NCBI GenBank assembly: GCA_000004695.1
Contig: CM000150.2
Location: 4,352,001 to 4,416,000 of the forward strand
Direction: 5' to 3'
Length of the DNA: 64,000 nucleotides
Origin: Dictyostelium discoideum
Taxonomy: Eukaryota
The position numbers were made by a program, and so were the translations under genes. Below, piece after piece: positions 51,943 through 52,146 of the stretch. The first letter of the stretch is position 1; every line of letters begins with the position of its first letter. Under the pieces are notes generated by a model. The model saw only the letters and a list, made by a program, of their open reading frames with translations, had not been told where the DNA came from and did not search any database.

Positions 51943-52146
51943 TGTTGATAATAAGTTAATTTATGTCCATTATGTAAAAAAGAAATTTCATCAGTAATTA
52001 GAGTTTTTTAAATAAAAATACCAACGTTTCTTGGTTACAAACAACACTTGTAAAAAAAAAAAAAAAATAAAAAATAATAAATAAATAAATAGAAAAATAA
52101 AAATAAATTATTAGTTTAAATTTCATTTGGAAGTGGTTGTCAAAGA
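51943..52146 (+). pseudogene. Degenerate partial copy of the last ~20 codons plus 3' UTR of the downstream TPR/Kelch/MYND/RING gene (compare 56026..56205)
   Basis: gttgataataagttaatttatgtccattatgtaaaaaagaaatttcatcag...aaataaaaataccaacgtttcttggttacaaacaacacttgtaaaaaa...tttaaatttcatttggaagtggttgt aligns with 56026-56205 (gttgataacaagttaatttcatgtcccttatgtaaaaaagaaatttcatcag...aaataaaaataccaacgtttattggttacaaccaacacttgtaaaaaa...tttaaatttcatttggaagtggttgt). A 1-nt deletion breaks the RING reading frame. Confidence 0.75.

Follow-up and report, generated by a model that had tools for sequence, protein, structure and literature searches.

In this report we describe a short stretch of DNA upstream of a TPR/Kelch/MYND/RING gene, hereafter the parent gene, in extremely AT-rich Dictyostelium DNA; the whole stretch of DNA that was analysed, 64 kb in length, will be called the window. 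The product of the parent gene is matched in Pfam by TPR, Kelch, and C3HC4 RING domains, and its MYND finger, with the segment scanned alone, reaches 22.7 bits, which is exactly the gathering score. An exhaustive search of representative proteins gave no match from the D. discoideum group; only the distant amoebozoan orthologue P0009 (EukProt; 1063 aa, 28% identity) was returned. This orthologue carries an N-terminal part, TPR, Kelch, MYND, a coiled coil, and RING in the order that makes up the architecture of the parent gene—as judged from this comparison, the architecture is old and common to both proteins. When the N-terminal part of the parent protein was used as the query, generic TPR proteins only were returned, and a literature search found no study on the parent gene. 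Its two introns are both located towards the 5' end and fall outside the segment that has been copied.

The upstream neighbour of the parent gene is a CRT-like transporter gene on the same strand, which ends at 51287. The fragment of interest is found between these two plus-strand genes and therefore falls inside a 1136-nt intergenic region. Most of this region has a G+C content of 0-10%, apart from two islands (51620-51700 and 52146-52197) that reach 25-35%; neither has another match within the window, and the second holds TATTGGTGA twice, 28 nt apart. These islands may be promoter elements or older relics. On the downstream side lies an Hsp70 gene (58084-60006) in convergent orientation. The gap that separates the 3' ends of the parent and Hsp70 genes (56097-58083) is unusually long, at approximately 2 kb, and includes A38 and T43 tracts together with G+C-richer patches, for example at 56690-56740, 57060-57210, and 57830-57950, for which no Rfam match was obtained.

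Repeats are found within the parent gene and directly before it. An (AAT)n array of approximately 50 units (147 nt, 52276-52422; TRF) ends 2 nt short of the parent ATG, so the parent 5' UTR is probably a nearly pure AAT repeat. The same repeat also encodes the poly-Asn tracts of the protein, which provides in-phase substrates for unequal exchange. Further into the gene, an exact 30-nt tandem duplication at approximately 55548-55607 encodes NSFYKWIGSL twice and begins a third unit; it sits between the poly-Glu and poly-Asn tracts and reflects recent slippage that kept the frame.

The intergenic region upstream of the parent gene contains a broken copy of that gene's tail, with homology far beyond chance. 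The copy is approximately 250 nt long (51889-52141), has the orientation of the parent, and lies 283-535 nt upstream of the parent ATG; the start-to-start spacing of copy and parent is 4060-4085 nt. The coordinates of the individual parts are collected in Table 1.

Table 1. Features of the parent gene and of the parts of its upstream copy (positions are those of the window).
Feature	Position	Strand	Remarks
Parent gene (TPR/Kelch/MYND/RING)	52424-56096	+	Modelled exons 52424-52629, 52745-53069, 53163-56096; 1154 aa
Parental counterpart of the copy's 5' extension	55301-55347	+	Codons ..VLKSNNNINN..; starts at the exact end of the 42-nt tandem array 55199-55301
Parental source segment	56012-56200	+	RING end, stop codon 56094-56096, 104 nt of 3' UTR; local alignment, BLASTN
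Genome-encoded A38 tract in the parent	56202-56239	+	Directly past the 3' limit of homology; without counterpart in the copy; TRF
Probable 5' extension of the copy	51889-51942	+	AGTATTAAAATCTAATA and an Asn-rich AAT-like stretch, equivalent to gene 55301-55347; frame as in the rest of the copy
Copy of the last RING codons (VDNKLISCPLCKKEISS...) to the stop codon	51943-52011	+	62/69 gap-free sites identical to 56027-56096
Copy of 3' UTR block 1 (ATAAAAATACCAACGTTTCTTGGTTACAAACAACACTTGT)	52012-52051	+	38/40 sites as in 56097-56136; two occurrences in the window
A-rich, AATAAA-containing UTR middle of the copy	52052-52113	+	62 nt, against 37 nt in the parent (25 nt longer); several indels
Copy of 3' UTR block 2 (GTTTAAATTTCATTTGGAAGTGGTTGT)	52114-52141	+	27/27 sites as in 56174-56200; first mismatch with the parent at 52141

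By local alignment, 51943-52141 pairs with 56027-56200, which comprises the last 23 codons of the parent gene, its stop codon, and 104 nt of its 3' UTR. This alignment scores 211; across 200 Markov shuffles the mean was 40.4 (sd 8.3) and the maximum 69. BLASTN recovers the homology as two separate blocks: 51943-52065 matches 56027-56150 with 91.1% identity over 124 columns (E = 1.3e-36), and 52114-52140 is identical to 56174-56200 at 27 of 27 positions. The longest exact runs shared by copy and parent measure 25 nt (51970-51994), 27 nt (52003-52029), and 27 nt (52114-52140), and substitutions are found at 9/136 gap-free sites (6.6%). Each of the two UTR blocks occurs exactly twice in the 64-kb window when up to three mismatches are allowed, with a chance expectation of 0. 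An assembly artefact is unlikely because copy and parent differ by substitutions as well as indels. A preliminary description of this DNA had reported a frameshifted copy of the parent 3' end upstream of that gene's own start codon, and had named an identity below 70%, or the presence of the block at many loci, as evidence to the contrary; the identity of 91.1% and the two occurrences of each block within the window bear the report out.

The same description placed the copy at 51943-52146, and both limits differ here. At the 3' end the homology stops at 52140, where the parent enters its A38 tract; the sequence onward from there (CAAAGAAAGAAGG...) continues into the parent gene's own upstream region, and a comparison of 52142-52423 with the parent's downstream flank gave nothing above background (within the range of the controls). 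A comparison with the region upstream of block A of the alignment also stayed within the control range. A long alignment past 52141 that appeared in the first local alignment was rejected, as it consisted merely of matching T and A runs.

At the 5' end, the copy very probably starts at 51889 and not at 51943, a placement that draws mainly on one 17-mer in AAT-rich sequence. The exact 17-mer AGTATTAAAATCTAATA at 51889 equals gene positions 55301-55317, is not of low complexity, and is collinear with the rest of the copy; non-low-complexity exact matches of this length occurred in 3/611 AT-rich 100-nt control windows (empirical p ~0.005). In addition, when 51288-51942 was aligned locally to the gene with composition weighting, 51889-51942 against 55301-55354 came out best. 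Its score of 37.2 compares with a Markov null of 19.6±2.1 (maximum 25.5) and with 30.1 for a reversed-sequence control, which is as high as this because of the AAT repeats. The extension doubles as a local array of three 21-nt units (TRF). As the 17-mer is collinear, in frame, and rare among the controls, the extent of the copy is taken here to be 51889-52141. With a start at 51889, the copy would have lost approximately 660 nt of the parent, a stretch that encodes the tracts of Asn and Glu, the coiled coil, and the RING as far as its sixth zinc ligand. The 42-nt tandem array identified by TRF ends exactly at this parental 5' boundary, 55301.

Upstream of the copy no further trace of the gene was recovered: a composition-weighted, repeat-masked local alignment of 51288-51888 with the gene scored no higher than 16.4, whereas the control median was 19.6. 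A tblastn match at 51602 (VFGNKKNN.. against VIGNEKNN..) was rejected, being driven by low complexity and not collinear in its spacing. A repeat search of 51500-52300 revealed no direct repeat bracketing 51889-52141 of the kind left by a target-site duplication, although short AT-rich duplications could have decayed.

The lesions of the copy can be followed along its length. Immediately 5' of 51943, six nucleotides of the parent (TGTGTT) are absent. The 1-nt deletion noted in the preliminary description is real; it lies at 51962/51963, where the copy reads TTAATTT-ATGTCC and the gene TTAATTTCATGTCC, and it shifts the frame. Two isolated substitutions in the coding part are third-position, synonymous changes from C to T/A, and five clustered T/A transversions turn the last three variable codons from DFC into VIR. 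The copied 3' UTR, put at approximately 110 bp in the preliminary description, corresponds to 104 nt of the parent and includes both blocks; its A-rich middle differs from that of the parent by several indels, and in the copy it contains a 22-nt array at 52055-52108 (TRF). The copy is thus disabled: it carries a 1-nt frameshift, lacks approximately 1100 N-terminal codons as well as most of the RING, and has no intact open reading frame (ORF). No ORF with a start codon covers the fragment in the intergenic region.

We put the probability at roughly 0.7 that 51889-52141 is an unprocessed pseudogene fragment without coding capacity or function, left behind when the parent gene underwent a local head-to-tail duplication. 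Its geometry is that of the head-to-tail junction of a tandem duplication—the end of the parent's 3' UTR abuts sequence found 283 nt before the same gene's ATG. The parent orientation and the inclusion of the 3' UTR would fit a genomic copy of more than the coding sequence alone, though the mRNA would also carry the 104 nt of UTR, and the homology stops by the presumed transcript end. The locus is also visibly prone to slippage and unequal exchange, as the preliminary description had proposed: it combines AAT and other triplet arrays, the 42-nt array ending at 55301, and the exact 30-nt duplication in the parent.

Homology, its limits, and its lesions, like the lack of functional signs discussed below, are seen directly; the order of events and the mechanism we infer as follows. 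A unit of approximately 4.06 kb, from 52142 (approximately 283 nt before the ATG) to the end of the 3' UTR at 56200, would first have been duplicated in tandem, with the start of the downstream A-tract joined to an A-rich motif upstream of the promoter. The partners at the junction are both A-rich (GTTGT|TAAAAA.. in the parent and GTTGT|CAAAGAAAG.. in the copy); an exchange mediated by microhomology where the A-tract begins would be compatible with this. The redundant upstream copy would then have been deleted 5' of gene position 55301, and a second deletion, of approximately 660 nt, would have removed the stretch from the Asn-codon repeats to the end of the RING. The tail and the junction would have survived and drifted neutrally, gaining 6.6% substitutions, the 1-nt frameshift, and changes of repeat length in the A-rich part of the UTR.

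A footprint of an ancient tandem duplication, with the upstream paralogue lost except for its 3' end, was among the explanations offered in the preliminary description. The footprint itself is favoured by the orientation, the 3' UTR, the head-to-tail junction, and the lesions; for a whole paralogue, no further relic was detectable in 51288-51888. The word "ancient" is to be taken as a relative term, for the divergence is merely ~6.6% at gap-free sites. Breakpoint junctions of tandem duplications, including those that arise from the re-integration of circular DNA, resemble this locus in the joining of a 3' UTR end to the gene's own 5' flank, in the presence of a defined unit (here ~4.06 kb), and in an A-rich junction. 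They differ in that nothing of the upstream unit beyond the 250 nt next to the junction survives here, so the full duplication is something that we infer and do not observe.

This missing remainder gives some weight to a different origin, in which a break or a stalled fork between the two genes was repaired in one step by copying approximately 0.25-0.9 kb of the parent 3' end, 4 kb away, and a full upstream paralogue never existed. Template switching, synthesis-dependent repair, or the capture of a DNA fragment could each be the route. In the absence of any trace of the remaining paralogue, the tandem model needs at least one large deletion (~3.2 kb) and an internal one; a one-step insertion requires fewer events and is in that sense more parsimonious. 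It would also agree with the sharp ends of the homology, with the lack of any other relic of the gene upstream, and with the position of the source boundaries at repeats that are able to stall replication—the 42-nt array ends at 55301, and the A38 tract begins at 56201. However, the join of the fragment's 3' end to the gene's own upstream region is predicted by tandem duplication without extra assumptions, and neither a flanking target duplication nor clear microhomology is seen at the 5' junction. The present sequence is compatible with both models; we hold one-step insertion to be the less probable of the two, though the foremost of the alternatives.

A second question is whether the fragment has been retained for a function, as a UTR or terminator module kept upstream of the promoter by selection; it could terminate read-through from the CRT-like gene there, serve as an element of a promoter or enhancer, or be bound by the factors that bind the parent 3' UTR. 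Several features would suit such a role. The copy sits 140-390 nt upstream of a T-run/(AAT)n region that probably holds the core promoter, its UTR blocks have a G+C content of 30-35%, which is relatively rich for Dictyostelium non-coding DNA, these blocks are nearly unchanged (65/67 sites), and AATAAA motifs are retained. The UTR is nevertheless not significantly more conserved than the dead coding part: substitutions affect 7/69 coding and 2/67 UTR sites (Fisher p = 0.17, or p = 0.68 when the cluster of transversions is counted as one event), and exact runs of 27 nt are expected by chance at the observed divergence (P = 0.90). The pattern of divergence in the copy looks neutral, on what are small numbers.

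The search for RNA-level signals gave a similar picture. Folding of both UTR copies was no better than that of shuffled sequences on either strand (z = -0.43 and -0.17), and Rfam (15) returned no relevant match for 51200-52500 (E <= 10) or for 55900-58200 (E <= 5). Two roles raised in the preliminary description find no support here. Antisense complementarity to the parent 3' UTR does not fit the orientation of the copy, which is that of the gene; complementarity would require transcription from the minus strand, of which there is no indication. As for a contribution of polyadenylation signals, AATAAA is kept in the copy, yet the CRT-like gene has many such motifs of its own directly past its stop codon (within 200 nt of it, and 650 nt before the fragment). 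A scan for bacterial-type promoters and terminators, which is irrelevant in a eukaryote, yielded fewer matches than shuffled sequence. From these comparisons we found no sign of function or of selection acting on the copy, and a selected cis-element is a very improbable reading. The same slim chance is given to a later co-option of the relic. As a second 3' UTR/polyadenylation module approximately 150-400 nt before the promoter, it could protect that promoter from CRT-like read-through in the manner of a terminator or insulator, or its two G+C-richer blocks could be bound by one factor acting at both ends of the gene, for example in 5'-3' gene looping or autoregulation.

An origin through RNA was weighed as well. 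A non-LTR retrotransposon might have reverse-transcribed the 3' end of the parent mRNA and inserted the product upstream, leaving a 5'-truncated retrocopy. LINE-type 5'-truncated processed pseudogenes share with this fragment the presence of the transcript 3' end only and an end near a plausible polyadenylation region; the homology stops approximately 40-45 nt past the last AATAAA motifs, near a possible mRNA end. In contrast to such pseudogenes, however, the fragment adjoins its source gene and has neither a poly(A) tail nor a target-site duplication. The sequence after the end of homology (CAAAGAAAGAAGGTATTGG) is not poly(A), though the parent locus encodes A38 at this point, and the missing tail argues against a retrocopy. 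For an insertion to land only 4 kb away, in matching orientation and right before the very gene it came from, would moreover be a coincidence. These points make a retrocopy less probable still than a selected element. Finally, the least probable reading is that the fragment belongs to a dispersed repeat, or to the 3' end of a gene family with many copies, and is no copy of this particular gene: its blocks are found only twice in 64 kb, gene-specific coding sequence is contiguous with UTR inside the homology, the repeat search found no terminal repeats at the copy, and a search of metagenome contigs with a 27-mer of the copy gave 0 matches. A second metagenome scan, for related loci and strains, was likewise empty.

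Seen beside known systems, the fragment looks like an ordinary duplication scar or pseudogene fragment. In Dictyostelium, partial gene fragments have been documented beside their parent genes at the tgrB/C locus (PMC12745789). The relic described here, probably a genomic copy, resembles the tgrB/tgrC fragments in being a partial copy with non-coding flank that is linked to the parent, truncated, frameshifted, and drifting. The differences lie in scale and setting—here there is one very small relic (~250 nt), located in the parent's own promoter-upstream region, with no sign of a dynamic multi-copy cluster or of a role as recombination donor.

The practical value of the relic, apparently non-coding, is small. 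Masking it, or annotating it as a pseudogene fragment, would keep primers, probes, knock-out arms, and short reads meant for the parent 3' end from going to a second site at a distance of 4 kb. It also serves as one example, dated in principle, of how a local duplication decays in a genome as rich in repeats and A+T as that of Dictyostelium. It would become more important only if it were conserved or affected transcription.

Other repeats and RNA features were observed elsewhere in the window. A non-coding direct repeat (26-115 and 2394-2484; 93% identity over 91 nt, 2.4 kb apart) contains TTTTACATTGATTTTGACCCACATATATAATGTTCACTATGATTT and adjoins no ORF of at least 60 aa; a further duplication scar is one possible reading, a repeated element with a regulatory role or an association with an ncRNA another. 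Two inverted repeats lie in non-coding DNA: one at 15413-15468 / 15939-15995 (96% over 57 nt; BLASTN), and one at 36403-36450 / 36495-36544 (96% over 50 nt), whose arms, separated by only approximately 45 nt, would fold into a long hairpin. At 15709-15767 there is an exact 28-nt tandem pair. On the minus strand, 23331-23388 is a full-length match in Rfam to the Dictyostelium Class I RNA family (RF01414, Dicty_Class_I_RNA), with 54.2 bits against a gathering score of 41.5.
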